A stretch of DNA of 63,937 bases, taken from NCBI GenBank assembly GCA_964612215.1, contig CAZTEW010000002.1:1-63937 (forward strand). The letters are read 5' to 3'. Positions 12,139 through 53,865 of the stretch are shown piece by piece (within the stretch, counting starts at the first letter, position 1; each line of letters opens with the position of its first letter). The DNA comes from an uncultured Gammaproteobacteria bacterium (GTDB lineage: Bacteria > Patescibacteriota > Microgenomatia > CAZTEW01). The notes below the pieces were generated by a model, which was not told the origin of the DNA, searched no databases, and worked only from the letters and a program-made list of their open reading frames with translations. Position numbers and translations under genes: made by a program.

Positions 12139-12652
12139 GAATGTTTTTAGCTTGGTCTAATAATTGATGAATTTTTAATTCCTCAGCGGCTTGCTTTTCC
12201 GGCTGCCAGAGAATTTCTTCAGGCAGTTCTTGGCGCAATTTATTCAACACCGCTTGATGCTTGCTAGCGGCAGCCTGAAAAATCTCTTTTTTCTGGCTGG
12301 CATCTATTTGCTGCCAATGAAAATTGGATTTTTCCAGGGCCCGCTCGGCCAGGAGATATTGCTCGTACTCAAAAAGAGTTTTTGCTTCCACTAAATATTT
12401 ATTTGCCATTTTCAGGTGATATTTAAACTGAGCCAGGTTGCCAAAAGACCAGTATTCCTGAAATTTTTCCCAAACCTGCCGGAGCCGATAAAGCTTATGT
12501 CCGGGCATGTAAGAAGGGTAAGGCAAAACATCGCCTGAAGCATTCGCTTCAGGAATGATCAATAACCAATAACCAATAACCAATAATAAAGACAAAAAAA
12601 TAATTTTAAATTTAAAATTATTCATTGCTTTCGGGCAACAACGCCAATGCAC
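12125..12652 (-). CDS. Secreted or anchored helical protein, DUF5667-like
   Basis: N-terminal hydrophobic helix followed by YMPGHKLYRLRQVWEKFQEYW...YLVEAKTLFE. The likely start is ATG at 12625, which forms an ATGA overlap with the methyltransferase stop. Confidence 0.55.
   Translation of the reverse strand: MHWRCCPKAMNNFKFKIIFLSLLLVIGYWLLIIPEANASGDVLPYPSYMPGHKLYRLRQVWEKFQEYWSFGNLAQFKYHLKMANKYLVEAKTLFEYEQYLLAERALEKSNFHWQQIDASQKKEIFQAAASKHQAVLNKLRQELPEEILWQPEKQAAEELKIHQLLDQAKNIREKI
12554..12588. repeat. Period-7 tandem repeat (AATAACC) x3 plus 2 imperfect units inside a CDS
   Basis: aatgatc aataacc aataacc aataacc aataata. Encodes the signal/TM segment LLVIGYWLLII. Confidence 0.85.
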
Positions 12653-30592: not shown

Positions 30593-32257
30593 CTATTTTA
30601 ACATGAAAGACTTCAGGCCGCGGCCAACAAGGAATAATAAAGAGAGACAGCTGATGGCTTCGCCTAAGATTCTATCCCAAGTTCTGGTAAATTTAATCAT
30701 CACCTCATGTTCGCCCTCTTCCAATGGGAATTGAATCAGCCCTGATATTAAAGTAATATCAAATTTTCTTTTTTGACCATTCCAGCCAGAGGCTGGTCCG
30801 CCTTTGGTGGAGACCCAGAGCCGCCAACCAGGATAATAAACCGTATTCAGTCGCACCTGACTATCCTCGACTGCTTTGACGCGATATTTTTGCCAATGAG
30901 AATGAACTTCTTCGCTTAAAACCTCAACTTCACCAGCCATGGCTTCTAAAACTGCCTGTCTCGGACCTTCATGTTTACCGCTAACCGACCAGCGAGGCCG
31001 GTATTCATTATAAGAATTGCTGGTTGCTGGTTTATTTAAAAAGTAGTCGTCAGTCAGATCTTGATAAAGATTGACGCGCAGATGGTTGCGGTTGCCATAA
31101 AAAGTTAAAGCCAATAAAAAAATGGTCAGCGGCAAGAAAAGAGTCTTTTTTTTGAGAGCTGTTAAAACCCCGCCGGTGATTAAAGAACTAAAAAGAGTGG
31201 TCAAGGCCAAGTAGCGAAAAGGAAAGTCAATCTTTAGAAAAAAGCTGATCGCTTGCCAATAAGGATTGGCAACAGGCAGCATCAAAAAAACTGCGCTGAA
31301 GAAAAAAACTATCAATAAGCCGAGCAACCGCTGGCGTTGTCGCCACCAAACCAAAACTGCTAAAGCTACCGCCAACCACTGAGCAATGCCAACCTGAAAA
31401 GACATGGCATCGAGTTCGGTCCCGGGATGGGATAAACCATAGCCCCAAGATGAATAGATTAATTGTTTTAGGCTAGGAAAGTGATCGCGATAAAAAACCA
31501 TCATTTCTTGGGAAAACATGGTCTCTTTTTTTTCTACTAGGGCTGGCAGCCAGTAAAAGGCGCTGAGGGCTAGCGCCAGAATTATGAATTTAGAATTATG
31601 AATTATGAATGCTTTTTTATCTTTCCTCTGGTAAAGAAAAAAGATAATCAAAACCAGTAAAAAAGGCAAAAATAAAAAGGCCAGCATCATGTGAGAAAGA
31701 AAAAGACAGGCTAAAAAGATGCCGCCGAAAATAGGCTTTTTTGCCAACACCGCCCAAATCAAAAGCGGCAAGAAGAGAAAACAAACCGCCTCGCCTAAGC
31801 TGGCTCTGACCAAAATGGTGGAAAAGCGCCACGGCGTCCAAAGATAAAAAACAGCGCCGGTAAAAGCTGCCAATCGGTTTGACCAAAGTTTTTTTTGCGT
31901 CAAATACATCGCCAGGCCGGACAAAACATAAGTCAGAATAAAAACCGCCTTAATTGAATCAATAAACGAAAGTCCTATTAAATGAAAAAAAGTGCCTAAA
32001 TAAAAAGGGAAGCGGTAGATGAAAATAAAAAGAGGGTAACCATAGCCATCAAAAGCCGGTGGGCCGGCCCAGCGCACCGGCAGCTGACCATCCTTTAATC
32101 CTTTGACAAAATGAATTAGTCTGATAACTTGATGTTCGCCGTCGTGGCTGGTATAAAAGCCCGGCTGAAAAAGGGCTTTCACACCAAAAACACCAATGAG
32201 AAGCAATAAAATTAAAGCCAGCCAATCAATCTTTTTCATGAAAAAACCAATGTTCAA
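30593..32257 (-). CDS. Family A polytopic membrane protein, putative GT-C glycosyltransferase
   Basis: 554 aa. SHDGEHQVIRL, AFYWLPAL and VYYPGWRLWV motifs. Alternative ATG at 32239. Confidence 0.7.
   Translation of the reverse strand: MNIGFFMKKIDWLALILLLLIGVFGVKALFQPGFYTSHDGEHQVIRLIHFVKGLKDGQLPVRWAGPPAFDGYGYPLFIFIYRFPFYLGTFFHLIGLSFIDSIKAVFILTYVLSGLAMYLTQKKLWSNRLAAFTGAVFYLWTPWRFSTILVRASLGEAVCFLFLPLLIWAVLAKKPIFGGIFLACLFLSHMMLAFLFLPFLLVLIIFFLYQRKDKKAFIIHNSKFIILALALSAFYWLPALVEKKETMFSQEMMVFYRDHFPSLKQLIYSSWGYGLSHPGTELDAMSFQVGIAQWLAVALAVLVWWRQRQRLLGLLIVFFFSAVFLMLPVANPYWQAISFFLKIDFPFRYLALTTLFSSLITGGVLTALKKKTLFLPLTIFLLALTFYGNRNHLRVNLYQDLTDDYFLNKPATSNSYNEYRPRWSVSGKHEGPRQAVLEAMAGEVEVLSEEVHSHWQKYRVKAVEDSQVRLNTVYYPGWRLWVSTKGGPASGWNGQKRKFDITLISGLIQFPLEEGEHEVMIKFTRTWDRILGEAISCLSLLFLVGRGLKSFMLK
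30786..30810. repeat. Type-3 palindromic micro-insertion (KGGPASGW cassette)
   Basis: CCAGAGGCTGGTCCGCCTTTGGTGG, identical to 5782-5806. Encodes STKGGPASGW. Confidence 0.8.
31577..31610. repeat. Period-7 repeat block containing the 28-nt string CAGAATTATGAATTTAGAATTATGAATT
   Basis: aattatg aatttag aattatg aattatg. Encodes FIIHNSKFIIL before the YWLPAL motif. Confidence 0.85.
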
Positions 32258-33087: not shown

Positions 33088-35274
33088 TCAATAACTAAAT
33101 TCTACTTGAGTTTGGCCCGCCGATGAGGCGGGTACAACTATAGCTCGATAATGATAATTGGCGCGGTAAATGGCTGCTTCCTGGCCGTTGACGCGCGCTG
33201 ACCAACCCGGATAAAAAGCGTCAGAGAGAATAAGAAGCGCTGGGCAAGGAGAGTTCACTTGTAGCTTAATCTGATTAGGAGTATAGCTGGTTATCTCAAC
33301 TGACTGATCTCCCATTGTCAAATTGTTACATTGTTCGATGGTTAAGGCTGGCTTCTCTTCGAGAATGGCTGTCTGGCTCAAATCAATCTCTTCACTCATC
33401 ATTAACTCAATCACTTCTTGCTGATCTTTGGCCACTTGATAATTATTCACCAAAAAAGCCCGGGGAAAAAATTGTTTATTCTCATAAATTTTTGTTTCGC
33501 CCTCTTCAAAAACAAGGTCTAATTTTTCTGATTCAAGCGCCTCAAGAGAAAGAAGATATCTCACATTTAAAAAATCAACCAATTTTGATTGGTAATTATG
33601 TAAGGTAATAATCCTATTAAAACCAAAGGGCGCTGAAATGTCTGGCTTGTCTCGTTCGATGGCCGCCACTAGCTCACCATAACGCCGGAGATAAAGCGGA
33701 TCATAACCAGACACATCTTCTAAATGATAAACAGCGCTGAAATTAGGCGCTAAGATGCGATCGTCAACGCCCATAATCCGGAACGGCTGCTCTTCGGTTT
33801 GTCGTTGCTGGAGAAATTCAATCGTTTTTGTTTTGGGAAAAATAAATTCTGCCGGTGAAAAAGGAGTGAATTTTTTGGCAAACCGAAGCAAGTCAAAACA
33901 GATCAGCAATAAAAGACTGCTGATAAATAACCAACGAGGCAAGCTGATAAGTCGGCGGGCTGCCACCAGCAACCAAAGCCCAACTAATATCGCTGTCGGT
34001 AAAATTAAATTCCGCCGGGCCACGGGCAGATTAGCCGGATCGGCTCCGCCACAAAAAGCAACCAGCCACAGCAAAAGAAAAACAGCGCTGATAACCGTCA
34101 ACCACCGCCAAGGAACGGTTTTGTTTTTAATTAATTTTTCCCAGCCAAAAGCAGCCAGGACTGCCAGGGAAAAATCAACCAGAAACAAAAGCCTGGTCGG
34201 TTGGCTGGTCGAAAGAAACGGAATTTTCAACTGATAGATCAATTTTGCCCAGGGCGTTGATAAAGCAAAAGACAAACTTATCAGCGCCAGCCAGGCAAAG
34301 AATTTTGTTTTCTTGTTTACAAAAATACCGCTTAAAGCTAAAACCAAAGGAATAATGCCAATAAAACCGATAAATTCTCCGTAATTCCATTCGCCCCAGT
34401 AATTCAGAGTCGTCGGATTGCCGAAAAAATCCGGCGCCAGGAATTGCACTAAATGCGGCCAGGGAATAAACCAGCCGGGCTGATGCCAGTTAAGATCGGC
34501 ACCTCGCCCGCTCCTTTCGATTAAACGAAAAGTCGGCAACCACTGAATCGCTGTCGCTAAAGTAAAAAGTAAAAAGTAAAAAGTAAAAAGTTTAATTATC
34601 TTCTTTCTTTTTTTGATCTGAAATAAACGCCAGATAATATAAATCGCACTGGCCAGGATAACATAAAAAGCAGTTTGGAGGTGGCCGGCGAAAAAAGAAC
34701 AGGCCAGGCTGAAAACGAAGATAAAGCTCCAGCCGCATCCTTGCCGGCCAATAATTTTATCAATTGCTAGCAGAATTAAAGGCAGCCACAAGGCCGCCTG
34801 ACCAATCGTTCCCCATTCCAGCCAGGCAACCATAAAGCCGGAAAAAGCAAAAGCTAAACCGCCAAGAAAAGCGGCCGTCCGGCCGAGCTTCAGGTTTCGT
34901 AAAAAAAGAAACATAAAAATCGCCGCCAGCAGCGGCTGTAAGAAAACCAGTATGGCCCAGCCAAAATTAAAATTAAAAAACCCTTGGCTGTCAGCAGGCA
35001 GGAAAAATAAAAAATTCAACGGGTAAAACGAGCCGGACTGAAAATTTGCTAAGAGCGGACTGCCGGTCAACTGATAAGGATTCCAACCTGGCCAATGACC
35101 AACCTGCCAGCTTTTAATAGCCAGCCAGCGCCAGGGATACTGCTGACGCACCGGGTCAGTAATCAAAAAGTTTTTAAAAGGAAAGCCACGCGGCCAGAGA
35201 TTAACAAAAAAATCCCGAAAAGGATGGTACATCCCGACCAAAGCATCTGCCGGAATCGGAAAAAAACTTTTCAT
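33088..35274 (-). CDS. YfhO-family GT-C membrane glycosyltransferase (lacks the N-terminal TM helix of its paralogues)
   Basis: 728 aa. WNPYQLTGSPLLANFQSGSFYPLNFL, PDFFGNP and FYPGWSARVNG motifs. Starts at MKSFFPIPADALV with an ATGA overlap to the upstream GT4. Confidence 0.75.
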   Translation of the reverse strand: MKSFFPIPADALVGMYHPFRDFFVNLWPRGFPFKNFLITDPVRQQYPWRWLAIKSWQVGHWPGWNPYQLTGSPLLANFQSGSFYPLNFLFFLPADSQGFFNFNFGWAILVFLQPLLAAIFMFLFLRNLKLGRTAAFLGGLAFAFSGFMVAWLEWGTIGQAALWLPLILLAIDKIIGRQGCGWSFIFVFSLACSFFAGHLQTAFYVILASAIYIIWRLFQIKKRKKIIKLFTFYFLLFTLATAIQWLPTFRLIERSGRGADLNWHQPGWFIPWPHLVQFLAPDFFGNPTTLNYWGEWNYGEFIGFIGIIPLVLALSGIFVNKKTKFFAWLALISLSFALSTPWAKLIYQLKIPFLSTSQPTRLLFLVDFSLAVLAAFGWEKLIKNKTVPWRWLTVISAVFLLLWLVAFCGGADPANLPVARRNLILPTAILVGLWLLVAARRLISLPRWLFISSLLLLICFDLLRFAKKFTPFSPAEFIFPKTKTIEFLQQRQTEEQPFRIMGVDDRILAPNFSAVYHLEDVSGYDPLYLRRYGELVAAIERDKPDISAPFGFNRIITLHNYQSKLVDFLNVRYLLSLEALESEKLDLVFEEGETKIYENKQFFPRAFLVNNYQVAKDQQEVIELMMSEEIDLSQTAILEEKPALTIEQCNNLTMGDQSVEITSYTPNQIKLQVNSPCPALLILSDAFYPGWSARVNGQEAAIYRANYHYRAIVVPASSAGQTQVEFSY
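33115..33133. repeat. Type-4 GC hairpin (GCCCGCC-GATGA-GGCGGGT) in frame
   Basis: Encodes PASSAGQT. Confidence 0.7.
34561..34588. repeat. Perfect heptanucleotide tandem repeat (AGTAAAA) x4 inside a CDS
   Basis: Four exact units. Encodes the TM helix LFTFYFLLFTL preceding the QWLPTF motif. Confidence 0.9.
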
Positions 35275-36341: not shown

Positions 36342-38631
36342 TATCTTTTAAACTCCATAAAATTCCGGCTAAGGCTAAACAAGCAATCATCAGGCCCCAG
36401 CGGAAAGCAGCTGGTCGATATTCAAAAACCACCTCATGTTCTCCGTCAGGAACCACCACTCCTCGGAAAGAATAATTAGTCCGGTAAGTTTTAGTGGTTT
36501 CGCCATCGATAGTCGCTTGCCAGCCAGGATAAAAATTATCAGTTAAAACCAGCAAGCTCCAACAATCAGCTTCCAAGTCAATCACCACTCGATGAGGTTG
36601 ATAATCAATAATTTCCGCGCCTCCTTTGTGACCACAAGTTTGAATTTCAAAATCAGGCTCGACTTCTAAAACGGCTGTTTGTTTTAGTTCTGTCTCCTCA
36701 ACCAACATAAAATCAACAATCTTCTGGTCTTCCTTGATCACTTGATAATCATTCACTAAAAAGGCTCGCGGCAAGGCCTGTTTGTTCAGCCAAACTTCAT
36801 ATTGATCATCTTCCCAGGTCTTTTCAAAACCTTCCGGATATTGCCAAAACGGAAACGCCCAAATATTTTGACCATCAGCTTTGGCATGAAGTAAATACTT
36901 AACTCCCAAAAAATTCAACAGTTTATAGGTGTAATCGCCGTTTTTACTGATATAAACAGTTAGTGGTGACGGATCACCAATTTTACCTGTTACTGCCGTT
37001 GCTATTAACTGACCATAGCGCCGGATAAAAAGAGGATCATAACCCTCAATGCCCGGAATTTGAAAAACATTTAGTTCGCCGCCGAAATTACCAAACACCC
37101 GTTCGCCTTTTTCAGTTTTTTCCTGAAGAACTTTAATGACTTCCAGCTGAGGGTAAAAGTGCTCTCGCGAATCAAATGGCAGCCATTTTCGGCTAAAACG
37201 AAAAACATCAAAGATCGTCAGCAATAGAATTGCTGACAGAATTATGAATTTAGAATTATGAATTTTTTCGAGCAAAGCTCCGCTAATTATCAAGCCAGAA
37301 AAAGTTAAAAATATCGCTGAAGGCAAAATAAGATTGCGGCGGCTGACCTGACGCCACTCACCTTTGCTTAAAAACGTCCACCCCCAAGCAACAGCCAAAA
37401 TAAAAGCAAAAACAAATAGAAAAACCACCAGCCTCTTGAGGCGCTTCTTTGACCAATCAACCAATAAGGCCTCTAGTCCAAAGCTAGCTAAAACTGCCAT
37501 GGCAAAACTATAAAGAACAATAATCCGGGAAAAGGCGCTGGTGGATAATACCGGAATTTTCAGCGACACCAAGAACTTTTGGACCGGCGAACGAACTACA
37601 ATAACTAAAGACAAAAAAACCAAGAAGATGAAAAAATGCCGCCGCCTGTCCTGCCGGCCGAAAAACAAACCGTAAGCTCCTAAAACCAGCGCTACGACGC
37701 CAATAAAGCCTGACCATTCGGCATAGTGACCGAACCAATTATTAGCGGTCACCGGGTTGCCAAAAAAGTCCGGTGCCAATAAAGTAATTAAATAGCGAAA
37801 CGGAATGCTTTCGCCGGGGTGAAAGGCTTCGCTTCGGACTGACTGTTGATAAAATTCAACTGTTGGCAGAATCTGCGGCCCGGCCAAACAAATTCCCAAA
37901 ACAAAAAATATCAGCAGTTTCCCTGAGCCGCGGCCGCGGCTCAACCAATAAAGAAAAACCGCCATTAAAAAATAAAGACTGATCTGAAAGTGGCCGGAAA
38001 AAAGGGAAAAAGCCGTTACCAGGGAAAAAAACGGACCTACCCAAATTTGACCTTGACGAAACTTTTCCACTAAGTAAAGCGCCAAAGGCAGCCAAACCAT
38101 GACCCAGACTAAGGTCCCGTAAGCCAGCCAGCAGGTAAAAAAACCGCTAAAACCAAAGCTAAAACTGCTGATCAGCGCCGCCCCGGCGGAAAATTTAATT
38201 TCCCGGAGATAAAGGAAGGTAAAAAGCGGCCCTAATAATAAGGGTAAAAGAACTAAAATGCTCCAAGCGTTTAAGACCGGTAAGAACGCAAACAGCCAGT
38301 TTCCGGGATGAAAAGGGGCTGACTGATAGTTTGCCAGCAGGGGCGTGCCGCTGAAATTATAAGGATTCCAACCCGGCCACTGACCGGACTGCCAGTCTTT
38401 AATCGCCAGCTGGCGCCAGGGAAAAATTTGCGAACCAACATCCGGCATGGCCGGGTTTCTCACCGGAAAGCCGTAATAATATTGCCAGGGCGTAAAGTTA
38501 TTGACTAAATGACTGGCCGGAAAAGGAATTCTCCCCTGTCCCCAAAAAGGAAAAGTAAAGATGATGAAAACCGCTAAAATCAGCAGGAAGCTAAACCTGT
38601 TTCTGTTGAAAACTACGATCGATTTTTTCAT
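36322..38631 (-). CDS. YfhO-family GT-C membrane glycosyltransferase
   Basis: 769 aa. FPASHLVNNFTPW, WNPYNFSGTPLLANYQSAPFHPGNWL, PDFFGNP and FYPGWQATIDG motifs. Confidence 0.8.
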   Translation of the reverse strand: MKKSIVVFNRNRFSFLLILAVFIIFTFPFWGQGRIPFPASHLVNNFTPWQYYYGFPVRNPAMPDVGSQIFPWRQLAIKDWQSGQWPGWNPYNFSGTPLLANYQSAPFHPGNWLFAFLPVLNAWSILVLLPLLLGPLFTFLYLREIKFSAGAALISSFSFGFSGFFTCWLAYGTLVWVMVWLPLALYLVEKFRQGQIWVGPFFSLVTAFSLFSGHFQISLYFLMAVFLYWLSRGRGSGKLLIFFVLGICLAGPQILPTVEFYQQSVRSEAFHPGESIPFRYLITLLAPDFFGNPVTANNWFGHYAEWSGFIGVVALVLGAYGLFFGRQDRRRHFFIFLVFLSLVIVVRSPVQKFLVSLKIPVLSTSAFSRIIVLYSFAMAVLASFGLEALLVDWSKKRLKRLVVFLFVFAFILAVAWGWTFLSKGEWRQVSRRNLILPSAIFLTFSGLIISGALLEKIHNSKFIILSAILLLTIFDVFRFSRKWLPFDSREHFYPQLEVIKVLQEKTEKGERVFGNFGGELNVFQIPGIEGYDPLFIRRYGQLIATAVTGKIGDPSPLTVYISKNGDYTYKLLNFLGVKYLLHAKADGQNIWAFPFWQYPEGFEKTWEDDQYEVWLNKQALPRAFLVNDYQVIKEDQKIVDFMLVEETELKQTAVLEVEPDFEIQTCGHKGGAEIIDYQPHRVVIDLEADCWSLLVLTDNFYPGWQATIDGETTKTYRTNYSFRGVVVPDGEHEVVFEYRPAAFRWGLMIACLALAGILWSLKDNENWFF
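37236..37266. repeat. Period-7 repeat block containing the same 28-nt string as 31577 and 44257
   Basis: CAGAATTATGAATTTAGAATTATGAATT, here inside a YfhO-family gene. Encodes KIHNSKFIIL. Confidence 0.85.
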
Positions 38632-39409
38632 AGGTTTGCTCTAATGATTCTGACCGCTGCCTTTCCCAGAGTCGGCTGTAAGTGATAAAGCGGCTAAACA
38701 CCTGGAAAATGCTCTCTAACCAGCCTTCAAGACCATAGCGCCAATTTTGCTCCAGCAAAACTTGGCATCTCAATTCCCGGGCCAGCGCTCTTAAAAGCCG
38801 CCACCAGGTTATCGGTGGATGACCGGACTGCATCATCAATTCGGCTTCTATTTTTGACCATTTCAGGGTTTTTTTGGTCATGGATTCAATATCGCGATGC
38901 GTCAGATGAACGAGATGATTTTTTAAAGTTCCTTTTCTGCCTTTGACCTGGGGGCTCTCGTGAATAACGCCTTGCCAAGACATTAATGCCTTTCTTTTGA
39001 ATAACTTCTCTACTTTATCTGGTTTTTGCTCCCTGCCGAGGAAAATATTTTTCCGCCAGATGTAATAAACCGCCGGTAGTCGCTCCTTGAGGTGGGACGG
39101 CATTTTGCCGACAATCCCCTTAATTTCTTTAGCCAGCTCTTTTGTTAGTCTTTCATCCGCATCCAGATAAAGCACCCAATCAGCCTGAGCCTGTCGAAGG
39201 CCAAATTCTCGCTGCGTCGCAAAGCTTTTTTTTTGATGGACGAAAACTTTGGCGCCATATTTTTTGGCAATCTCAATTGTCCTGTCGGTTGATTGATCAT
39301 CAACCACAATGATTTCAGCCGCCCACCTCTCCGGCGGGCGGACAGAATTCAAGCAGCCCGGCAGCCATTTTTCTTCGTTTTGAGTGAGAACAATTACGCT
39401 AAGTTTCAT
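38591..39409 (-). CDS. GT2-family glycosyltransferase (paralogue of 13316 and 40903)
   Basis: 272 aa. LSVIVLTQNEEKWL, IIVVDDQSTDRT and LDADE motifs. Confidence 0.8.
   Translation of the reverse strand: MKLSVIVLTQNEEKWLPGCLNSVRPPERWAAEIIVVDDQSTDRTIEIAKKYGAKVFVHQKKSFATQREFGLRQAQADWVLYLDADERLTKELAKEIKGIVGKMPSHLKERLPAVYYIWRKNIFLGREQKPDKVEKLFKRKALMSWQGVIHESPQVKGRKGTLKNHLVHLTHRDIESMTKKTLKWSKIEAELMMQSGHPPITWWRLLRALARELRCQVLLEQNWRYGLEGWLESIFQVFSRFITYSRLWERQRSESLEQTYEKIDRSFQQKQV
39083..39095. repeat. Solo type-1 arm (CTCCTTGAGGTGG), an apparent empty or excised site
   Basis: It sits at the position where paralogue 40903 carries the full 46-nt element. Protein is HLKERLP here versus HLRGVPPRRRATSEERLP in 40903. 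Confidence 0.6.
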
Positions 39410-40316: not shown

Positions 40317-40945
40317 TGGGTGGTGATTTTGATTCTTGACTGGGTCAGAATGGCCACATCGCCAACAGTTGTTTTCATCTGGACGCGGTAAAGTTTTTTG
40401 CCAGGCGAAAGCGTCAACGGTGAAGAAATGACTAATCCCGGCGTACCGCCTTCCAAAGAAACCTCAGAATTCCAAACCATATGGCCGTCGGTGACATTAA
40501 AAAGTCGGGCATAGCCGCGCTGGTTGCCGTTAGGAATATTCAGACTGGCTTCAAAAACAACTTCTTTAATAGAACCGTATTGGGAAGAATCAATGTAGGT
40601 TTCCAGACCGATCATCTCCAGCCATTCGCGCGCCGTGGTTGAACCGCTGCCAAAGCTCACGAAGAATTCTTTAACTCCTTGGGCCGCTACGACTGGCTGT
40701 TTTTGGACTGATGGAGGCGCTGTTGCTTGAATAATTTCATCAATTTTTTCCAAACAGGCCGCTGGACAAACATCTATTTCAGCCGCCGGACTCGCTGTTT
40801 CTTCGATGATTGGTTCTTCTGGCGCGGGCGGTTGTGGCTTAACTGAATCAAGTTTTTGGAAAAACTTCATGTCTAAAAAAATCAGATTGGCAACAACCAG
40901 TATTAAAAGCGCCCAAAAAATGACTTGGAAAACCTTTGCCACCAT
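40313..40945 (-). CDS. N-terminally anchored extracytoplasmic protein of unknown function
   Basis: 210 aa. One N-terminal TM helix, a Pro/Glu-rich linker (KPQPPAPEEPIIEE), then a beta-rich C-terminal domain. No family recognised. Confidence 0.5.
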   Translation of the reverse strand: MVAKVFQVIFWALLILVVANLIFLDMKFFQKLDSVKPQPPAPEEPIIEETASPAAEIDVCPAACLEKIDEIIQATAPPSVQKQPVVAAQGVKEFFVSFGSGSTTAREWLEMIGLETYIDSSQYGSIKEVVFEASLNIPNGNQRGYARLFNVTDGHMVWNSEVSLEGGTPGLVISSPLTLSPGKKLYRVQMKTTVGDVAILTQSRIKITTQ

Positions 40946-41835
40946 TTTCCCTCCTTAGTCCAACTATTAATTAACCAGTGGTGTAATTCAGCGCCCATTT
41001 GTTTAAATTCTTTAGCGACTGCCTTTAAAAATTCTTTTTCTTGACTGGGAGGAAAGCCTTGTTTTTCCCAAATCTTGGCAAAAACGACCAAAGCATAAAA
41101 AGACTGCAGCAGCGCCAGCACCAAACCATGAAGGCCATCTTTAAAACCTTCCCGGGCAAAGAAAACCGAAAGAAAATCACGGGCCGGCATTCTGATGGCA
41201 TCATACCAATAGACTTTTTGACCGCGCTGCCGCAGACCTTTAACTTCATCCTCGGTATAAATCCGGTCCATCTTTTGGATAAACTGGGAAACGGTTTGGT
41301 AATTATGGTGCAGCAGCGGCGAGGTTAATTTCGCGGTTTCTCCCTGGACTTTGATTTTTTCATGAACATGCTGGCAGGGAAATTTCCCCTTGTTCCGCTG
41401 GAAAAGCCGCAGCTGATAATCCGGCCACCAGAGACCGTGTTGAATCCACTTACCAAAAATAATATTCTGCCGCGGCATCTCATAGCCTACTGGTAGTCTC
41501 TCCTCCGAGGTGGCCCGCCGACGAGGCGGGACTCCTCGGAGGTGGGACGACATTTCAGCGCTCAGCGCTGGTGTCACCCGTTCGTCGCCATCGAGGTTAA
41601 GAATCCAATCACCAGTCGCCTTTTCAAAGCCGAAGTTTTTGTTTTTATTAAGCATCGCTAGATTAGGTTTCACAAAAACCTTATTTGTGTATTGCCTGGC
41701 AATCGCCGCGGTTTTATCGGTCGAAGAGTTGTCAACAACAATCACCTCGTCCGCCAAGCCGCGGACCGATTCTAAACAGTCAGCTAAATTATTTTCTTCG
41801 TTAAAAACAGAAACCACTACCGAAATCTTCTTCAT
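40903..41835 (-). CDS. GT2-family glycosyltransferase (paralogue of 13316 and 38591)
   Basis: 310 aa. ISVVVSVFNEENNL, VIVVDNSSTDKT and LDGDE motifs. Confidence 0.8.
   Translation of the reverse strand: MKKISVVVSVFNEENNLADCLESVRGLADEVIVVDNSSTDKTAAIARQYTNKVFVKPNLAMLNKNKNFGFEKATGDWILNLDGDERVTPALSAEMSSHLRGVPPRRRATSEERLPVGYEMPRQNIIFGKWIQHGLWWPDYQLRLFQRNKGKFPCQHVHEKIKVQGETAKLTSPLLHHNYQTVSQFIQKMDRIYTEDEVKGLRQRGQKVYWYDAIRMPARDFLSVFFAREGFKDGLHGLVLALLQSFYALVVFAKIWEKQGFPPSQEKEFLKAVAKEFKQMGAELHHWLINSWTKEGKWWQRFSKSFFGRF
41500..41545. repeat. Type-1 palindromic element (46-nt canonical form) in frame
   Basis: CTCCTCCGAGGTGG-CCCGCCgacgaGGCGGG-aCTCCTCGGAGGTGG. A 46/46 match to 45882-45927, which lies in an unrelated gene. 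Confidence 0.9.
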
Positions 41836-43286: not shown

Positions 43287-44904
43287 AAGAATATCTTAGC
43301 ATAAAAAAAGCCAAGCCTAGCCAGGTTATTAGGCTAATCAGATTGGCCAGAGTTCTGATGGGCGTATTGGTAAAGCGCAGGTTCACTTGGTGCCGGCCAG
43401 CGGGCAGAGAAAGTTTGATTTTGCCGGCTTGGATTTGCGGCTCTTGTTCCTGGCCATCCATCCAGAGCCGCCAGCCGGGAAAATAGGCGGTGTTAATTAA
43501 AATTTCTCCGCCGGTTGGCGGATTGGCAGTAACCTCGAAGTTCAGTCGATGTGATTTAGAAATCAAATCGCTAATCGCCACTTCACCTGCCAAGACTACC
43601 ACCTTTTTCCAAGCCGCCTCATCCCGGTTGGTTGACACGGGAAAATCACGCGGCAGATATTCGTCAGAAATTCTCGAGGTCGTCCATTTAATATTTTCTT
43701 CATTGACATATTCGGCAACGCCAAAAGACAACATCCTTTCTGGCTGAAAAAATTTGGCGTTCAAAGTCAAAAGAATCAAAATCACCAAACCAACGCCCAG
43801 TTTTCCTCGCCAGCCTTGCTGGTTTAACCACCAAGCGGCGCTGCCGGCTAAAAACGAGCTGGCGGCCGTCGCCAAAACCAAAAACCGCCAAGGATATTGA
43901 ATAAAAGACATCAGCGGCGCTAATTGCCAGATAAAAGCGGAAAAGCGGCTCATTAGGAAAACAGCGAAAATTAATATTCCTAGGGTGACACCGATCGCCC
44001 GCTGCTGAAATTTAGTCTTAAGACAAATCAACGCTGCCACCCCAGCCATAATTAAGTGAAGTTTGCCAATCATCAAGCTCATCCCATCCCAGGGTCCGGG
44101 GGCGGAACCAGCAAAACCCCAAGGGCTATCCCAAAGCTGGCGTAGATAAACAAAATGCTCTCGCCAATCTGCGCCGGCGCCAATCTGGCTAAAAACCTGA
44201 GTCAATTTCATTTCTGTTAAGGCTGGCAACCAGTAAAAGGCGCTGGTTCCCAGCGCCAGAATTATGAATTTAGAATTATGAATTATGAATTGTCTTTTTT
44301 CTTGACTAAAGTAATAAAATATTAAAATAATAATGAATAAAAATATCGTCAGCATTAAAGCCGTTAAATTGTGAGAAAGAATCACGGCCGCATAAGCCAG
44401 GCCGCTGATGATCCACGAACGCCGCTTGAGACCGTAAAAAACCAAAGGCAGCCAGGCCATCGCCCAAAACTCACCGACGGCGCCCCGGACATAAATGTCC
44501 ACCGCATGATAAGGCGCGTACAGATAGAAAAGAGCGGCCACTATTCCACCGATTACTCCCCAGAATTCGCGAGCCAGTAAGAACATGGTTATCCCAGCCA
44601 GCAAGACACCGACCAGCATCATCATCTTTGTCGCTAATAAGGCGTTAAAGCCCAGAAGACATAGTCCGCCGCCAAAATAATAAGCCAGAGGCGCGTAGAA
44701 ATTAAAAATCGAATAGCCGTAACCATAACCCAAATCCGCCAGCTGGCGGACCGGAAACTGGCCGTCGCGCAGCGCCTCTCCCATTTGCTGAACCCGAACC
44801 ACTTGAGTATCGTCGTGAATCGGAAAAAAGCCATTAACCAGCAGCGGCCTGACTGCCCCAAGAGAAAGAATTAAAACAACTAATAACGGCCAAATTTTTT
44901 TCAT
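43279..44904 (-). CDS. Family A polytopic membrane protein, putative GT-C glycosyltransferase
   Basis: 541 aa. IHDDTQVVRV, AFYWLPAL and AYFPGWRLWM motifs, plus a C-terminal TM anchor. Confidence 0.7.
   Translation of the reverse strand: MKKIWPLLVVLILSLGAVRPLLVNGFFPIHDDTQVVRVQQMGEALRDGQFPVRQLADLGYGYGYSIFNFYAPLAYYFGGGLCLLGFNALLATKMMMLVGVLLAGITMFLLAREFWGVIGGIVAALFYLYAPYHAVDIYVRGAVGEFWAMAWLPLVFYGLKRRSWIISGLAYAAVILSHNLTALMLTIFLFIIILIFYYFSQEKRQFIIHNSKFIILALGTSAFYWLPALTEMKLTQVFSQIGAGADWREHFVYLRQLWDSPWGFAGSAPGPWDGMSLMIGKLHLIMAGVAALICLKTKFQQRAIGVTLGILIFAVFLMSRFSAFIWQLAPLMSFIQYPWRFLVLATAASSFLAGSAAWWLNQQGWRGKLGVGLVILILLTLNAKFFQPERMLSFGVAEYVNEENIKWTTSRISDEYLPRDFPVSTNRDEAAWKKVVVLAGEVAISDLISKSHRLNFEVTANPPTGGEILINTAYFPGWRLWMDGQEQEPQIQAGKIKLSLPAGRHQVNLRFTNTPIRTLANLISLITWLGLAFFMLRYSYG
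44257..44290. repeat. Period-7 repeat block containing the 28-nt string CAGAATTATGAATTTAGAATTATGAATT
   Basis: Identical block to 31577-31610. Encodes FIIHNSKFIIL. Confidence 0.85.
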
Positions 44905-46514
44905 TTTTTCAAAAGAAAGAGAACCACTAAAACGCTGATTAAGGAAACTAGGTCGGCCAAAAGACGCAATGGCGTTTCCTTAAAGACAGCCATCACTGAA
45001 TATTGACCGCCGGGCAGAGAAAAATCAATTAAGCCGGCTTGCTCATAATCAATCGGCTGGCGTTGACCGTCCCAGCCAGAGGCTGGTCCGCCTTTGGCGG
45101 AAATCACTAACTTCCAACCGGGAAAATAATGAGTGTTGAGGCGTAATCGGCTCGGCGCTGATAAGTCGGCCCGGAAAGCAACCCGGCGCGAATTAATGTC
45201 CAAGTCACTGATTTCACCGCTACCAGCAATAATTTCTACTTTTTGTTTAGCCCGCTTGTCCGGCATTTCTTTTACCCAAATGGGCGTGTATTCGGCGCCG
45301 ACGGTAGTCGTGTCTTCATTGGTCGTATAAAACCCAAGAGGTTGATTACTAAAATAAGCCGGTCGAGCGTATTGCCAGCCTTGCCAAACTAAAACTAGCG
45401 CCAAAATAATTACCAGGCCTTTTTGCCAGCGCCGGCTTGCTTGAGAAACTAAAAAACCGCCTAAGACTGAAGCAATAAAAGTGGTGAGCGCCAATAACCG
45501 CCAAGGGAACTGGATAAGATTGTAAACTGGAAAAAGCCGCCAAAGCCACCAAGACGGCGCTAACATCAGAAAAAAAGCCAGCCAAAAAGCAGAAACCCAG
45601 AATTTTAATTTTCGCCACCAAAATAAGCTGAGAGCGGCTACGGCTAAACTTAAAAGGCCGACTTGAAAAGAAATCCCATCTTCAAGAGAAAGGGGCAGAG
45701 ACGGACCATAGCCCCAAGAAGGTAATAATAATTGCTTTAAGCTCGGAAAGTGAAGAAAAAAATTACTGATCCTGGTCTGGCGGAAAAAAGTAAATTGCTG
45801 ATCCCAAAGAGCCGGCAACCAGAAAAAGCAACTCAAACCCAAACCCAATAAGATAGCGGCAGTCACTCTCTTGGCGGTAGGACTCCTCCGAGGTGGCCCG
45901 CCGACGAGGCGGGACTCCTCGGAGGTGGACGGCAAGAAAAGCCACCCCACCAGCAGGCCGCTAAAAAGCATCGCCATCGTATTATGCGACATTATTAGGC
46001 CGGCAAAAGCCAACCCAGCGACGATTTGATTTTGGCGAGATGGCTTCTCAATCTGCCAAAAGAGGAGAGGAGGGAAAACAAAAGCCAGGGCCTCGCCTAG
46101 TGAGCCGCGAACATAAACATCAACCAAGCGGTAGGGCGCGTAAACATAAAGCAAAGCGGCCATTAAACCAGCCAGTCTTCCCCACTTTTCCTTAAGCCAA
46201 AGGTACATGAAAATTCCAGACAAGAAAAAGCTAAGAATAAAAACCGCTTTTATCGCTTGGACAAAATCAAAGCCAATCAGATGAAAAAATTCCCCTAAAT
46301 AAAGCGGGAGCGGATAAAGAAAATTAAAAACCGGATAACCAAACTGGTGATTGAGACGGGCGGCCCAGCGCACCGGAATCTGGCCGGAAACAAAACTGCG
46401 GTGAAAATCAGAAAGCCTGACCACCATCCATTCGCCGTCGTGCGAAGGGAAAAAGCCGGGCGGCAGCAAAGAAAACACTAGCGGCAGCATTAAAAACAAA
46501 AGAAGCATTATCAT
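44901..46514 (-). CDS. Family A polytopic membrane protein, putative GT-C glycosyltransferase
   Basis: 537 aa. SHDGEWMVVRL, CFFWLPAL and HYFPGWKLVI motifs. Confidence 0.7.
   Translation of the reverse strand: MIMLLLFLMLPLVFSLLPPGFFPSHDGEWMVVRLSDFHRSFVSGQIPVRWAARLNHQFGYPVFNFLYPLPLYLGEFFHLIGFDFVQAIKAVFILSFFLSGIFMYLWLKEKWGRLAGLMAALLYVYAPYRLVDVYVRGSLGEALAFVFPPLLFWQIEKPSRQNQIVAGLAFAGLIMSHNTMAMLFSGLLVGWLFLPSTSEESRLVGGPPRRSPTAKRVTAAILLGLGLSCFFWLPALWDQQFTFFRQTRISNFFLHFPSLKQLLLPSWGYGPSLPLSLEDGISFQVGLLSLAVAALSLFWWRKLKFWVSAFWLAFFLMLAPSWWLWRLFPVYNLIQFPWRLLALTTFIASVLGGFLVSQASRRWQKGLVIILALVLVWQGWQYARPAYFSNQPLGFYTTNEDTTTVGAEYTPIWVKEMPDKRAKQKVEIIAGSGEISDLDINSRRVAFRADLSAPSRLRLNTHYFPGWKLVISAKGGPASGWDGQRQPIDYEQAGLIDFSLPGGQYSVMAVFKETPLRLLADLVSLISVLVVLFLLKK
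45076..45100. repeat. Type-3 palindromic micro-insertion (KGGPASGW cassette)
   Basis: CCAGAGGCTGGTCCGCCTTTGGCGG. Encodes SAKGGPASGW. Confidence 0.8.
45882..45927. repeat. Type-1 palindromic element (46-nt canonical form) in frame
   Basis: Identical to 41500-41545. Translated here as PSTSEESRLVGGPPRRS, a different frame from the GT2 copy. Confidence 0.9.
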
Positions 46515-48013
46515 GGCTTCACCTGATAAAGCCTTAACGAATAAGGTCTCTGAATCTTAGGATATTCAGCCACTAATTCCAAAGGCCACTCCTTGGGAAT
46601 ATCTCGCGTTTCATTAAAAACAAAATAAACCGGCCTCAACGCTGCTTTATCAATCAATTCTTGATTAATCTCATTAACTGGCCAATAACTTTTAATTTCA
46701 ACATTGTCATTATCCCAAAGATAAAGCTCGATCGAAGCTGGAAACATGCCAAAAGTGCCTTCAGTCGCCACCAAGATTGGTTGCTTCGCTGCCTTTGTTT
46801 CTAAAAGAACAATCATTTCTTTAATGCCGATACCTGATGGCCAGCTGGTGACGTATTGGCTTTTATCGCTGAAAGTAATTGGGGCCTGGGGCGGATTAAA
46901 AAGAATTTGATAATTAAAATATAGAATAAAGGCAAAAATCAAAATGCAAAATGCAAAAACCAAGAATCGTTTCGCCAGTCTCTGCGCTAGGCGATTAAAA
47001 GAATAAGCTGCCAGGATTAACAGAGGTAAAGTCATAAAAAAAATAAACCGAGGATAAAGAACCCTGCCAAAAAGAGCTAGAGCCGTAAAGGATGCCAAAA
47101 ACCAGCCGAAAAGCAACAGTCTTTCTTTTAAATATTTTTTCCAAAAAAATGAGCTGAAAACTAAAAGCAGCCAAGGCCAGGTCAAATATCTTCTAAGCCA
47201 ATCAAGCTCGCCCTTCAGATTGCCCCAGAGAAAAGTAAGCGGATGCTCAAGCCAATCTTTAAAGGGATAAACAAAAGTGGTGTCTTTCTGACTAATCATA
47301 TTGAAAAGCGGCGACAGCCGCAGGACCAGGTAAAAAAGCTGGGAAATAAAAACCGCCAAAACGGTTAAGCCAAGCCAAGCCAATAAGCGCCAGCGTTGAT
47401 TTTTTCTCCGCCAATCAAAAAGAATTAGGGTCAGGGGTAAAAAATAAATGCTTAGAAAACCAGAGGTTTTCGTTAAAACACCGCCGCCTAAGGCAAAACC
47501 CAAAATCAAGGCAATGTCTAGACGGAGAGTTTTGACCAATAACACGGCAAGTAATAAACTTAACAGTGAAAAAGTCCCGACTAAGCTGTCCATTAAAGCC
47601 ATTCGATCGTAAATCATGGCAAAGGGATAAAGAAGATAAAAGAACGAGGCCAGAAAGCTGACTTTCTTGTTTTTGAAAAAAACCCAGGCCAGCCACCAAG
47701 TCGTCACCATGCTTACCAAACCAGCCCCGACTGAAACCAAGCGGCCGGCGACCAAAGGGTCGGCAACAAGCTTCATCATCACCATGGTTAACCAAACAAA
47801 AAGAGGCTGTTTGCCGTCAGTCAGAGAAATAAACCGCCAGGAAGCGTCATTTTTAGCAATCTGAGCCCAGCGCAAATAAATCGCTTCATCAGTAAAAATA
47901 GGAATGATGGTGAGATTAATTAGCCGGATAATTAAAAAACCAAATAATAAAAGAAGAGCGGTTAAAATATCTTTGCGATTAAATCTCGGCCAAGCCATAT
48001 AAAGACAAGCCAT
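46511..48013 (-). CDS. ArnT-like (GT83-type) GT-C membrane glycosyltransferase
   Basis: The PIFTDEAIYLRWAQ...DGKQPLFVWL loop is typical of ArnT-like enzymes. I trimmed the ORF-track start (48319) to the ATG at 48013, because the longer form overlaps the upstream gene by 283 nt and that extension has no TM or family character. Confidence 0.65.
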   Translation of the reverse strand: MACLYMAWPRFNRKDILTALLLLFGFLIIRLINLTIIPIFTDEAIYLRWAQIAKNDASWRFISLTDGKQPLFVWLTMVMMKLVADPLVAGRLVSVGAGLVSMVTTWWLAWVFFKNKKVSFLASFFYLLYPFAMIYDRMALMDSLVGTFSLLSLLLAVLLVKTLRLDIALILGFALGGGVLTKTSGFLSIYFLPLTLILFDWRRKNQRWRLLAWLGLTVLAVFISQLFYLVLRLSPLFNMISQKDTTFVYPFKDWLEHPLTFLWGNLKGELDWLRRYLTWPWLLLVFSSFFWKKYLKERLLLFGWFLASFTALALFGRVLYPRFIFFMTLPLLILAAYSFNRLAQRLAKRFLVFAFCILIFAFILYFNYQILFNPPQAPITFSDKSQYVTSWPSGIGIKEMIVLLETKAAKQPILVATEGTFGMFPASIELYLWDNDNVEIKSYWPVNEINQELIDKAALRPVYFVFNETRDIPKEWPLELVAEYPKIQRPYSLRLYQVKP

Positions 48014-52254: not shown

Positions 52255-53865
52255 GTGTTGAAAAAATTAATCATTGTTGGCTTTCTTTTTAGCTTATTAC
52301 TTCGTTTCTATCAATTTGGCCAAATTCCGCCGGGATTAAACCGCGACGAAGCTTCTTTAGGCTATACTGCTTATTCGCTCCTGAAGAGCGGCCGCGACGA
52401 ATATGGAATAAAGTTCCCATTAACCATCAAGTCTTTTGGCGATTGGAAACTGCCGGGCTATATTTACACCCTGATTCCTTTTATCGCTATTTTTGGTCTT
52501 CAAGGCTGGGTCATCCGCCTGCCGTCGGCTCTGGCCGGCTTAGGCACGATTATTGTCATTTATTTTTTAGGGAAAGTTATTCCGCCCCCGCAGTGGAGCC
52601 ACAAATCCACTGCGGGGGCGGTTATGGCTAGCTTTCTCCTCGCCACCAGTCCCCTGCATCTCCACCTCTCCCGAGCTGGTTATGAAGCTAGTCTGGCGCT
52701 TTTCTTTTTTAGTCTCGCTCTCCTCTTTTTTCTCCGCTCTCGGTTCATCATCTCTTTTATCCTCTTTGCTCTGACTCTTTATACTTATCATGCCTATCAT
52801 CTTCTAGCGCCTCTTTTTCTGGTCCTGCTTCTTTATCAGCGGCGTCAGTCGCTTAACCGCAAGCTGATTGCCGGTTTGGGGATTTTTTTGGTCTTGGCTG
52901 CGATTATCTTTTATCTCAATTTCAGCGCCAATCTGACCAAAGCCAGCGGCATCACCTTTATAACTGACCCTGTTTTTATTCATAATCAAATTAATGAACC
53001 CCGCTCTCAAATTGCCAATCCCCTGCTCGGCCGCCTCATTTATAACAAGCCAGTTATCTTCGGGAAAACTTTTATGCTTAACTATCTAGCCAGTTTCTTG
53101 CCGCGATTTCTGGTCTTTCAAGGCGGCCGCCATCCAGTTCACAATGTTCCTGGTGTTGGCCCGGTTCTGCTTGTTGTTTATCTTTTGTTTTTTGTCGGCC
53201 TCTATCAGCTAATTAAAAAACCAAATAACCGCCTCCTTCTTGGCTGGCTCTTATTAACGCCCCTAGCTTCAAGCATTACTATTGATGCTCCTAGTACCGT
53301 TCGTTTAACACCAATGATTGTTCCTTTCTGTTTGATTAGCTCTTTGGGTTGGGAAAAATACAAACGCTTCACTTCAATTATTATCCTGATTATTTTTGTT
53401 AATCTGGCGCTTTTCGGCCGCCAGTATTTTCAAATCCTGCCTCGAGAACGAGCCCAAAATTGGGGGGCTGGTTATCAAGAATTAGCCAGCTATCTTAATC
53501 TGCCGGAAAGCGTCGCCCGCCCGGTCATCATGTCCCGACCAAATTATTCACCTTATATCTACTTTCTTTTTTACCAAAATTACCCACCGGCCCGGTATCA
53601 ACGAGAAGCGGTTCGCTACCCAGCGACCACTGACGGCTTCTTTCATGTTAAAAGCTTTAGCCGTTATCAGTTTGGAGATTTTGATCCCTTAGAAGCTGTC
53701 AATCAGGGTAAGGCTGTTGTTCTCTGGGCTGATGAAGAAATTGAGACGCTGATCGCTCCTTTTCTCCAAAAAACTATCTCTTATCGAGAAAAGCCGGTAT
53801 TTTATCTCTTTGCCAAAAAACAAGACCTAGCAAAACCAGCGCTCCCAGAGAAATCATTTCGCTGA
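52255..53865 (+). CDS. Family C PMT/ArnT-like membrane glycosyltransferase
   Basis: 536 aa. LRFYQFGQIPPGLNRDEASLGYTAYSLLKSGRDEYG and ATSPLH motifs. The 3' end overlaps the convergent gene by 92 nt. Confidence 0.8.
   Translation: MLKKLIIVGFLFSLLLRFYQFGQIPPGLNRDEASLGYTAYSLLKSGRDEYGIKFPLTIKSFGDWKLPGYIYTLIPFIAIFGLQGWVIRLPSALAGLGTIIVIYFLGKVIPPPQWSHKSTAGAVMASFLLATSPLHLHLSRAGYEASLALFFFSLALLFFLRSRFIISFILFALTLYTYHAYHLLAPLFLVLLLYQRRQSLNRKLIAGLGIFLVLAAIIFYLNFSANLTKASGITFITDPVFIHNQINEPRSQIANPLLGRLIYNKPVIFGKTFMLNYLASFLPRFLVFQGGRHPVHNVPGVGPVLLVVYLLFFVGLYQLIKKPNNRLLLGWLLLTPLASSITIDAPSTVRLTPMIVPFCLISSLGWEKYKRFTSIIILIIFVNLALFGRQYFQILPRERAQNWGAGYQELASYLNLPESVARPVIMSRPNYSPYIYFLFYQNYPPARYQREAVRYPATTDGFFHVKSFSRYQFGDFDPLEAVNQGKAVVLWADEEIETLIAPFLQKTISYREKPVFYLFAKKQDLAKPALPEKSFR
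52582..52621. repeat. Type-2 hairpin element (16-bp perfect stem, 8-nt loop) in frame
   Basis: CCGCCCCCGCAGTGGA-gccacaaa-TCCACTGCGGGGGCGG. Translated as PPPQWSHKSTAGAV. Confidence 0.9.

Follow-up and report, generated by a model that had tools for sequence, protein, structure and literature searches.

A family of short GC-rich palindromes lies inside the protein-coding genes of the 63,937-base stretch of DNA analysed here (the window) and is probably a non-autonomous, hairpin-forming selfish DNA repeat, of the general kind represented by repetitive extragenic palindromic (REP) elements and Rickettsia palindromic elements (RPEs). A shared consensus has been copied into unrelated genes and spacers, and the surviving copies are in-frame and stop-free. 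An earlier note on the same DNA, written around the copy at 41500-41545, had counted eight two-arm copies and a solo arm and had placed all of them within intact open reading frames (ORFs). The arm CTCCTCSGAGGTGG, sought across the window with up to two mismatches, gives 19 matches compared with a mean of 0.30 in dinucleotide-preserving shuffles (0 of 100 shuffles reached 19), and these matches make up eight copies with two arms each and a solo arm of 13 nt, a density of nine copies per 64 kb. Direct reading of the sequence agrees with the earlier count except that the partner identical to the 41500 copy is found at 45883-45928 and not at 45882-45927; all nine copies, solo arm included, do fall inside intact ORFs.

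Anatomy and predicted hairpin

The core of the element is an 11-nt inverted repeat, CACCTCCGAGG ... CCTCGGAGGTG, complementary at 11 of 11 bases and arranged around a centre of variable length, with TGG following the left arm and ACT preceding the right arm at its inner edges. The commonest form is 34 nt long, and the full copies in the window span 38-79 nt. Each copy is predicted to fold as a single long hairpin in which a small internal loop separates an outer stem of 9-11 bp from an inner stem-loop; the predicted energies range from -20 to -52 kcal/mol and z from -3.4 to -6.2, except for the diverged copy at 18944 (-20.4 kcal/mol, z = -1.8). More specifically, the focal copy at 41500-41545 consists of a left arm (41500-41513), the centre hairpin CCCGCC-GACGA-GGCGGG (41514-41530) and a right arm (41532-41545), and the predicted RNA fold of 41492-41553 has an energy of -43.9 kcal/mol (z = -4.9). 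The earlier note had described arms around a GC hairpin such as CCCGCC-N4-5-GGCGGG, but a CCCGCC...GGCGGG centre is present in only four copies (148, 1241, 41500 and 45883); the 6519 copy possesses a CCGCC...GGCGG relative together with a left arm that carries a 1-nt insertion, and the copies at 17277 and 20665 are centred on CGCTTGACG.

Compensatory double changes are found at 6 of the 11 inter-arm pairs (23 distinct arm pairs), the observed covariation score is reached by 0 of 500 shuffles, and the covariation is lost when the partner columns are slid. Compensatory arm variants include CACCCCCGAGG/CCTCGGGGGTG and CCTCGAAGG/CCTTCGAGG; variants like the first of these break the self-palindrome of each arm and keep the pairing of arm to arm. 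In 614 kb of element-bearing sequence, 203 of 213 arms are paired. By these measures the conserved feature of the element is the hairpin. An Rfam scan of the window returned no family at gathering score, and over the element it gave only chance-level matches to miRNA hairpins.

Beyond the arms, the outer flanks GGTAGTCT (left) and GACGACAT (right) are common to the copies at 41500, 18944 and 39083 and, less exactly, to that at 45883, and the window therefore contains at least two subfamilies. In the subfamily of the 41500 copy the left extension GTAGTCT occupies 41493-41499 and the right extension GACGACAT occupies 41546-41553, and the two pair with one another in the predicted fold. The GTAG of the left extension is also found at copies 39083 and 45883 and in the orthologues on contigs L068 and L071, with GATAG at copy 18944, and the right extension is the same sequence in copy 18944, GACGGCAT in 39083 and ACGGCA in 45883. 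GTAG is missing from the flanks of 64 copies of other genomes and of 12 copies from metagenomes; only the lineage of the window has the GTAG/GACGAC extensions, and the pan-lineage consensus has neither a GTAG nor a CGTC tag. Three contigs of JGI metagenome Ga0315293 (L079, L081 and L082) have longer flanks in common at three different loci (left flank GCGACGGAGA, right flank KCGRAGGAGCAG), which points to a putative lineage-specific extended subfamily distinct from the GTAG/GACGAC extension of the window.

Taxonomic distribution and coding context

A scan of 185,579 species, one genome per species, for the exact two-arm pattern CCTCCGAGGTGG-N4-34-ACTCCTCGGAGGTG revealed 65 further loci, each taken as an 8-kb piece of its host genome. 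Nearly all of these loci are in Microgenomates-type Patescibacteria, labelled as Curtiss-, Davies-, Levy-, Shapiro- and Chisholmbacteria and as other Microgenomates or Patescibacteria metagenome-assembled genomes (MAGs); a few are in one Berkelbacteria MAG and four Omnitrophota MAGs, and some of the loci come from MAGs labelled 'uncultured Gammaproteobacteria'. The commonest form is the 34-mer CACCTCCGAGGTGG-GCTTTG/GCTCTG-ACTCCTCGGAGGTG, which accounts for 35 of 72 copies, and other centres are recurrent, e.g. CCGAATGG (8 of the 72), or are GC hairpins. A scan of JGI metagenomes with a CT-arm variant added 12 more loci, and an IMG/VR scan for the element gave no matches, so that phage carriage was not seen there.

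The MAGs labelled 'uncultured Gammaproteobacteria' are third-party annotation records with CAY and CAZ prefixes and include L003, L004, L026, L037, L040, L045, L056, L060, L061, L063, L065, L067 and others. The TsaD of L026 is ~70% identical to Daviesbacteria TsaD, and the G+C content of most of these MAGs is within the range of the other element-bearing loci (0.38-0.41), with L060 at 0.52. Such sequence comparisons suggest that the label is probably wrong.

Copies were considered genic when the stop-free stretch around them ran to 100 codons or more and extended far beyond the element in both directions. By this measure 60 of the 72 copies (~83%) are genic and about ten are intergenic, the latter having no consistent relation to gene starts or ends; among 12 further copies in the same loci that were outside the search-pattern selection, 11 are genic. 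A genic fraction of this size is near the expectation from the coding density of such genomes. The earlier note had allowed that the motif might be confined to paralogues at homologous positions, whereas the genic copies of the 65 loci elsewhere are in unrelated hosts. These include PurL (FGAM synthase), UvrA, UvrB, the CCA-adding enzyme, PepP (M24 peptidase), PurD, trigger factor, TsaD, tryptophanyl-tRNA synthetase (TrpRS), a RecF/SMC protein, KsgA, DUF2298 and GT2, GT4 and GT-C glycosyltransferases.

All six combinations of orientation and frame are used among the 60 genic copies, and conservation is therefore at the level of the DNA and not of the peptide. This was the conclusion that the earlier note had drawn from the window, and it is upheld by the presence of the same 34-nt core, in six frames, in unrelated housekeeping genes of many genomes. 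In the window itself the arms are translated PPRRW, LLGGG or TSEE depending on the host, as had been reported, and also HLRG. Of 31 genic copies whose centre is 6 nt long, 24 are in the two frames that read the arms as TSE and 0 are in the frame that would yield a TGA, an absence with P = 0.0035 under uniform frame use. Most copies are found in frames that give hydrophilic peptides, e.g. TSEESKPTSEV and TSEVGFDSSEV. These reading-frame patterns indicate that the inserts are constrained as translated sequence, by what appears to be a peptide-level filter favouring hydrophilic readings.

Insertion into orthologous genes and subsequent change

Alignment of orthologues with and without the element, a comparison proposed in the earlier note, reveals a clean 42-nt insertion in TrpRS and a variable loop in the GT2 host of the focal copy; the copies are true insertions, in permissive, mostly surface, protein loops. 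The TrpRS of Daviesbacteria locus L011 carries STSEESKPTSEVSS, a stretch that is missing from solved TrpRS structures, and compared with its ~89% identical orthologue in L073 it has exactly 42 extra nt (14 codons), made up of the 34-nt core and 8 junction bases. In other TrpRS orthologues the insert is complete, has an additional module nested in it, has lost a part or has decayed. In the structure model of this TrpRS, in which confidence is low overall (mean predicted local distance difference test (pLDDT) score of 67.5), the insert follows helix 150-168 in low-confidence coil.

The focal copy lies in a GT2 gene at 40903-41835 (minus strand) and encodes residues 97-112 (SHLRGVPPRRRATSEE); its sequence is identical on two ENA contigs that were assembled separately. 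In orthologues the same loop contains a CCGAATGG-centred element (L071), a frame-shifted, extended version (L068) or no element, and the L072 orthologue, exactly 24 nt shorter than that of L071, has one arm left. Loop placement, which the earlier note had suggested examining on predicted structures, is borne out for this protein: in its AlphaFold model (mean pLDDT 87.9) insert residues 97-112 are in low-confidence coil between helix 89-100 and strand 117-120, and residues 101-110, with a mean pLDDT of 53, are the least confident block of the folded part of the model.

Inserted copies have also changed in place. One TsaD loop reads TSEVGFDSSEV in three genomes, whereas a fourth genome has TSEESKPTSEV there; because the latter version corresponds to the inter-arm segment in reverse complement, this loop has been flipped where it stands. 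Two hot-spot loops among 120 TsaD orthologues (323-421 aa; 60-73% BLASTP identity to the query; the query's own cluster excluded) carry the element, its relatives (HLPGV..HLEG), decayed versions (HTFEVKKRSYTSKVK), solo palindromes and several unrelated repeat-derived peptides, and even between proteins with 98.5% core identity an entire insert of another repeat family can be present in one and missing from the other. On contig L068, whose GT2 has 76% amino-acid identity to that of the window, elements are present at all three comparable sites with their centres, frames and flanks changed; the three copies are common to the window and L068 and are therefore old insertions.

Copies within the window

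The window is a large envelope-glycosylation cluster of ~43% G+C, with 11 GT2, 7 PMT_2 and 6 YfhO genes, and its genes are nearly all on the minus strand. By Pfam assignment the hosts are a TPR membrane protein, four PMT_2 membrane glycosyltransferases, one PTPS_related membrane protein and two GT2 proteins. The PTPS_related gene (44901-46514, minus strand) contains the 46-nt copy at 45883-45928, which encodes residues ~196-211 (STSEESRLVGGPPRRS) and is identical at 46 of 46 positions to the 41500-41545 copy; as the earlier note had stated, the two hosts are unrelated, and the reading frames differ. The L068 orthologue of this protein has an element at the same site with another centre hairpin, and paralogues are without it.

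Two copies share ORF 108-1754 (plus strand), which encodes the TPR membrane protein. The 79-nt copy at 148-226 (residues 14-40) has the common CCGAATGG centre with an extra 42-nt palindromic module nested inside, and its predicted fold has an energy of -52 kcal/mol; because this copy is at residues 14-40, it is coding only if translation does begin at the ATG at 108. The copy at 1241-1286 (residues 378-393, YTSEVARRLAGTPRRW) has the centre CCCGCC-GGCT-GGCGGG, and its closest sequence relative is the 148 copy (0.89 similarity). The 65-nt copy with the degenerate left arm, at 6519-6583, encodes residues 210-231 of a PMT_2 gene at 5601-7211 (minus strand).

Three PMT_2 paralogues form a tandem trio at 16011-21045 (all on the minus strand) with an element in the same loop of each. 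The outer two, at 16011-17660 and 19336-21045, contain the 38-nt copies 17277-17314 (residues 116-128, SPPRSRQAPPRRW) and 20665-20702 (residues 115-127), which are identical to each other. The middle gene (17657-19339) contains the 45-nt copy 18944-18988 (residues 118-132), which differs from these in frame and in its centre, CGAAG-CAACGA-CTTCG, and whose right arm at 18975 has two mismatches. The pattern of the trio suggests that gene conversion may have skipped the middle gene or that independent insertion may have occurred at a hot spot.

The solo arm at 39083-39095, CTCCTTGAGGTGG, is read SHLKE in a GT2 gene at 38591-39409 (minus strand). Its outer flanks match those of the 41500 copy, its position is homologous to the 41500 insertion, and it is most likely a deletion remnant. 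The L068 orthologue of this gene likewise has a solo palindrome at that position, and the 24-nt difference between the GT2 orthologues of L071 and L072 is a comparable collapse.

Mobilization and alternative explanations

The comparisons above show consensus copies pasted into unrelated sites, with those that are in-frame and stop-free surviving in permissive loops. After insertion, as seen between orthologues, the segment between the arms flips in place, the centre grows by means of nested palindromic modules, arm-to-arm deletion leaves a solo arm, and point mutations erode the element; neighbouring copies also look homogenised by gene conversion (as suggested by sequence similarity and not by orthologue comparison). 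A trans-acting enzyme may recognise the inter-arm hairpin, probably as single-stranded DNA, and such recognition would explain the same consensus in distant lineages of the Candidate Phyla Radiation (CPR). A HUH/RAYT-type single-strand transposase is the leading candidate for this enzyme, put forward with low confidence. A single-strand HUH enzyme of the RAYT/IS200 kind fits because there is no target-site duplication and because of the dependence on a hairpin; the window subfamily begins with GTAG (41493-41496), a tag without counterpart in the pan-lineage consensus. No clear replication-strand bias, as for IS200/IS605-type elements, is seen (element-strand GC skew is negative at 39 loci and positive at 27), and flipping in place makes this a weak test. 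There is no sign of a host function at individual sites.

Several points weigh against the selfish-repeat reading. The 49 ORFs of the window have 55 Pfam families, of which the 25 listed belong to glycosylation and sugar-nucleotide metabolism and include no transposase. A target-site duplication is missing, matches of 1-4 nt between left and right flanks being no commoner than in shuffled pairings, and beyond a CA at -2/-1, a weak A at -3 and G/A then A at +1/+2 the flanks have no conserved target motif. Recent polymorphism between filled and empty sites was not seen within any population, and the copies comparable with L068, three in number, are all shared. The 34-nt core is not a multiple of three, so that in-frame outcomes need extra junction bases of unexplained origin. 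The conservation of the arms is overstated because most of the sample was picked with an exact-arm pattern, and the conservation of a single consensus in Microgenomates classes, Berkelbacteria and Omnitrophota has an unusual breadth for a selfish repeat that spreads passively.

Alternatively, the element may have been spread by recombination and not by transposition, i.e. through ectopic gene conversion, hairpin-templated (quasi-palindrome) repair and the import of filled alleles by natural transformation. As a full account this is unlikely, and it is nevertheless a serious partial rival. The most similar window copies are physical neighbours 1-4 kb apart (148/1241, 17277/20665 and 41500/45883), and the 17277 and 20665 copies are identical at 38 of 38 positions inside paralogues that are 75% identical over the surrounding 165 nt, both of which point to probable local copying or gene conversion. 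The orthologous copies of the window and L068 differ in their centre hairpins and keep their arms, the missing target-site duplication is as recombination would have it, and compensatory arm changes are the expected product of hairpin-templated correction. Patescibacteria are in addition naturally competent (PMC11665869). However, gene conversion needs a pre-existing homologous tract and alone cannot place a 34-mer into TrpRS, TsaD, UvrA or PurD genes that are empty in relatives. Recombination thus accounts for the maintenance and homogenisation of the element better than for its first insertion.

It is very unlikely that the element is a DNA uptake signal, or another molecular-drive sequence, that accumulates in competent CPR bacteria via preferential import. 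Competence machinery is encoded by CPR bacteria, one of which is experimentally transformable (PMC11665869). The motif is conserved across lineages with common groundwater habitats, and the hosts include the DNA-repair genes UvrA, UvrB and RecF/SMC. A bias toward DNA-repair genes is reported for the uptake sequences of Neisseria and Haemophilus. Uptake sequences are, however, motifs of 9-12 nt that mostly stand alone, originate through substitution and recur roughly once in every kb, whereas the unit here is an insertion of 34-80 nt with nearly all arms paired, is present at nine copies per 64 kb in the window, and decays freely.

Little more can be said for a functional cis element at each site, either a ribosome-pausing mRNA hairpin with Shine-Dalgarno-like (GGAGGUG) and anti-Shine-Dalgarno-like (CACCUCC) strings or a duplex site for a nucleoid or repair protein, which is likewise very improbable. 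The predicted hairpins are very stable, a perfect Shine-Dalgarno complement is visible in the arms, pairing is preserved by compensatory changes and the consensus is conserved across phyla. Orthologous copies are, however, present, absent, flipped, deleted or mutated in proteins that are 65-90% identical, their positions in the hosts have no common logic beyond the permissiveness of loops, and the intergenic copies are as indifferent to gene starts and ends as described above.

The inserts would escape translation if they were cut out of the mRNA or if the ribosome skipped them, for which T4 gene 60 and the byp elements of yeast mitochondria are precedents, and the near-direct-repeat arms on either side of a hairpin could in principle provide matched codons for take-off and landing. 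This explanation is extremely improbable because skipped inserts would be under neither the frame and stop constraint nor the loop-peptide constraint, whereas the frame is always kept, the stop-containing reading is avoided (0 of 31) and decayed copies evolve as ordinary loop peptides. Finally, a conserved protein motif of paralogous glycosyltransferases, to which the homologous loop positions of several window copies could be attributed, is rejected in view of the six frames and the unrelated housekeeping hosts elsewhere, and an assembly artefact is rejected in view of identical sequence in independent assemblies of different studies and at orthologous sites; the chance that either is correct is negligible.

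Comparison with known systems

The earlier note had likened the element to the RPEs, which were reportedly described by Ogata et al. in 2000 and 2002. The likeness holds in kind, as both are hairpin-forming palindromes found in frame in unrelated, often essential, genes of small-genome bacteria, where loops tolerate them and no transposase of their own is known. RPEs are palindromes of ~100-150 bp that lie in frame in many unrelated Rickettsia genes, with a conserved peptide per family, and are confined to one genus (PMC10969869). In contrast, the core here is 34 nt and the window copies are 38-79 nt, six frames are used instead of one conserved peptide per family, and the element is found in several CPR classes and in Omnitrophota. 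The exact two-arm pattern matches in the 185,579 species genomes are confined to Patescibacteria-type, Omnitrophota and unclassified MAGs, with no Rickettsia among them, the RPEs being set apart here by their descriptions and not by a consensus alignment. Membership in the Rickettsia RPE family, with its different size, frame usage and taxon, is not supported, and the resemblance is one of kind.

REPs are imperfect palindromes of 20-40 bp tagged GTAG or CGTC that are mostly extragenic, with some inside uvrA/B/D, recBCD and tRNA-synthetase genes (PMC3733652), and those of the REPIN type are mobilised by RAYT transposases (PMC3116915). The element resembles them as a small imperfect palindrome in many copies and in its host overlap (uvrA/B and tRNA-synthetase genes). 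It differs in that REPs are predominantly extragenic whereas ~83% of copies here are genic. GTAG stands at the start of the window subfamily, whereas the pan-lineage consensus is untagged. No report of REPs in CPR bacteria was found in the literature searched. Similar to miniature inverted-repeat transposable elements, the element is non-autonomous, has terminal inverted repeats (CACCTCCGAGG/CCTCGGAGGTG) and is able to make in-frame fusions, but it is far smaller than these usually are and is without a target-site duplication.

GC clusters and byp elements are found in yeast mitochondria, the latter being skipped by the ribosome. Coding palindromes are also represented by the mitochondrial hairpin elements of Nematomorpha (PMC6649704). 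These mitochondrial sequences are likewise GC-rich or perfect palindromes in the genes of reduced genomes for which selfish spread has been proposed; they are, however, organellar and unrelated in sequence, and byp is skipped whereas the present element is read through. The small dispersed repeats of heterocystous cyanobacteria are said to be hairpins of ~20-30 nt that insert without duplicating their target, mostly between genes but at times into a gene or into one another (reportedly in Elhai et al. 2008). They are comparable as very small nested hairpins without target duplication and differ in taxa, in sequence and in being mostly intergenic.

No description of the element was found in the literature searched, sequence strings included, most subscription journals being outside its scope. 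The statement in the earlier note that no equivalent had been described thus stands as far as this element and the CPR bacteria are concerned. It does not extend to the phenomenon as such, since small REP-type palindromes are known inside genes of other phyla (PMC3733652). What appears to be new is the presence of protein-coding selfish palindromes in CPR bacteria, together with their unusually small size, six frames, wide taxonomic range, flipping and modular growth.

Other repeats within reading frames

The window contains further repeats inside its ORFs. A second palindromic family consists of a 30-nt double palindrome, TCCGCCTTTGGYGGA plus CCAGCCAGAGGCTGG or a variant, that is always read S[AT]KGG[PS]A[SF]G[WGR] and is found at 5778-5807, 13631-13660, 30782-30811, 45072-45101 and 53987-54016; its copy in ORF 44901-46514 is a clean 10-residue insertion compared with the orthologue L068:4465-6036. 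A third family, CGCCCCCGCRGTG-N13-CACYGCGGGGGCG, occurs in three ORFs in three frames (RPRGVATNPPRGR, PPPQWSHKSTAGA and RPRSGFVAPLRGR) at 21423-21461, 52582-52620 and 54338-54376. Its copy at 21423 is at about residue 118 of a 570-aa ORF (21072-22784), in a context that resembles the PMT_2 loop of the copies at 17277, 18944 and 20665.

AT-rich heptanucleotide tandem repeats (GAATTAT, AAAAAGT, GACAAAT and CAATAAC) are also all inside ORFs, mostly those of membrane glycosyltransferases, where they encode hydrophobic stretches, e.g. FIIHNSKFIIL and LFTFYFLLFTL. They are located at 3590-3625, 12080-12110, 12560-12590, 15333-15377, 16396-16442, 18043-18105, 31576-31620, 34556-34591, 37238-37277, 44256-44311, 46926-46961 and 56945-56989, and the repeat at 44256 is an insert missing from the L068 orthologue.

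In other genomes, the hot-spot loops of TsaD and TrpRS orthologues (e.g. L055:4456-5550 and L013:2181-3308) contain the peptides HLPGV..HLEG, VDSGQVTGDS, ..VIPSEARNL..DPSLVVQDD, ..SLLPRNDN and FDSAQDK. These repeat-derived peptides in Microgenomates housekeeping proteins suggest that several more in-frame repeat families may exist across the group.

Implications

Protein-coding palindromes were presented as a peculiarity of Rickettsia in a 2024 review (PMC10969869), and the same phenomenon is now found in another, very large part of the bacterial tree, with a unit no more than one third of the size of an RPE. The element sits in essential genes (TrpRS, TsaD, UvrA/B and PurL), and it helps to explain length differences among CPR orthologues, such as the range of 323-421 aa among TsaD proteins with 60-73% BLASTP identity to the query. 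It is possible, as a wider and much more tentative proposal, that the element, with several sister families in the same genes, makes up a population of very small mobile palindromes that has gone unrecognised in CPR bacteria, and that it is a main generator of loop-length variation in their proteins, essential enzymes included; the constancy of the consensus would then be due either to a conserved single-strand hairpin enzyme or to movement between co-resident ultra-small bacteria by natural transformation.

Masking of such inserts is advisable in gene calling, alignment and structure prediction, and the presence, absence and flipping of inserts can serve as fine-scale phylogenetic markers. 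The distribution of the element raises the question of how a 34-nt hairpin is copied in organisms that are said to have few mobile elements, and the hairpin itself is a concrete handle for finding the enzyme responsible.

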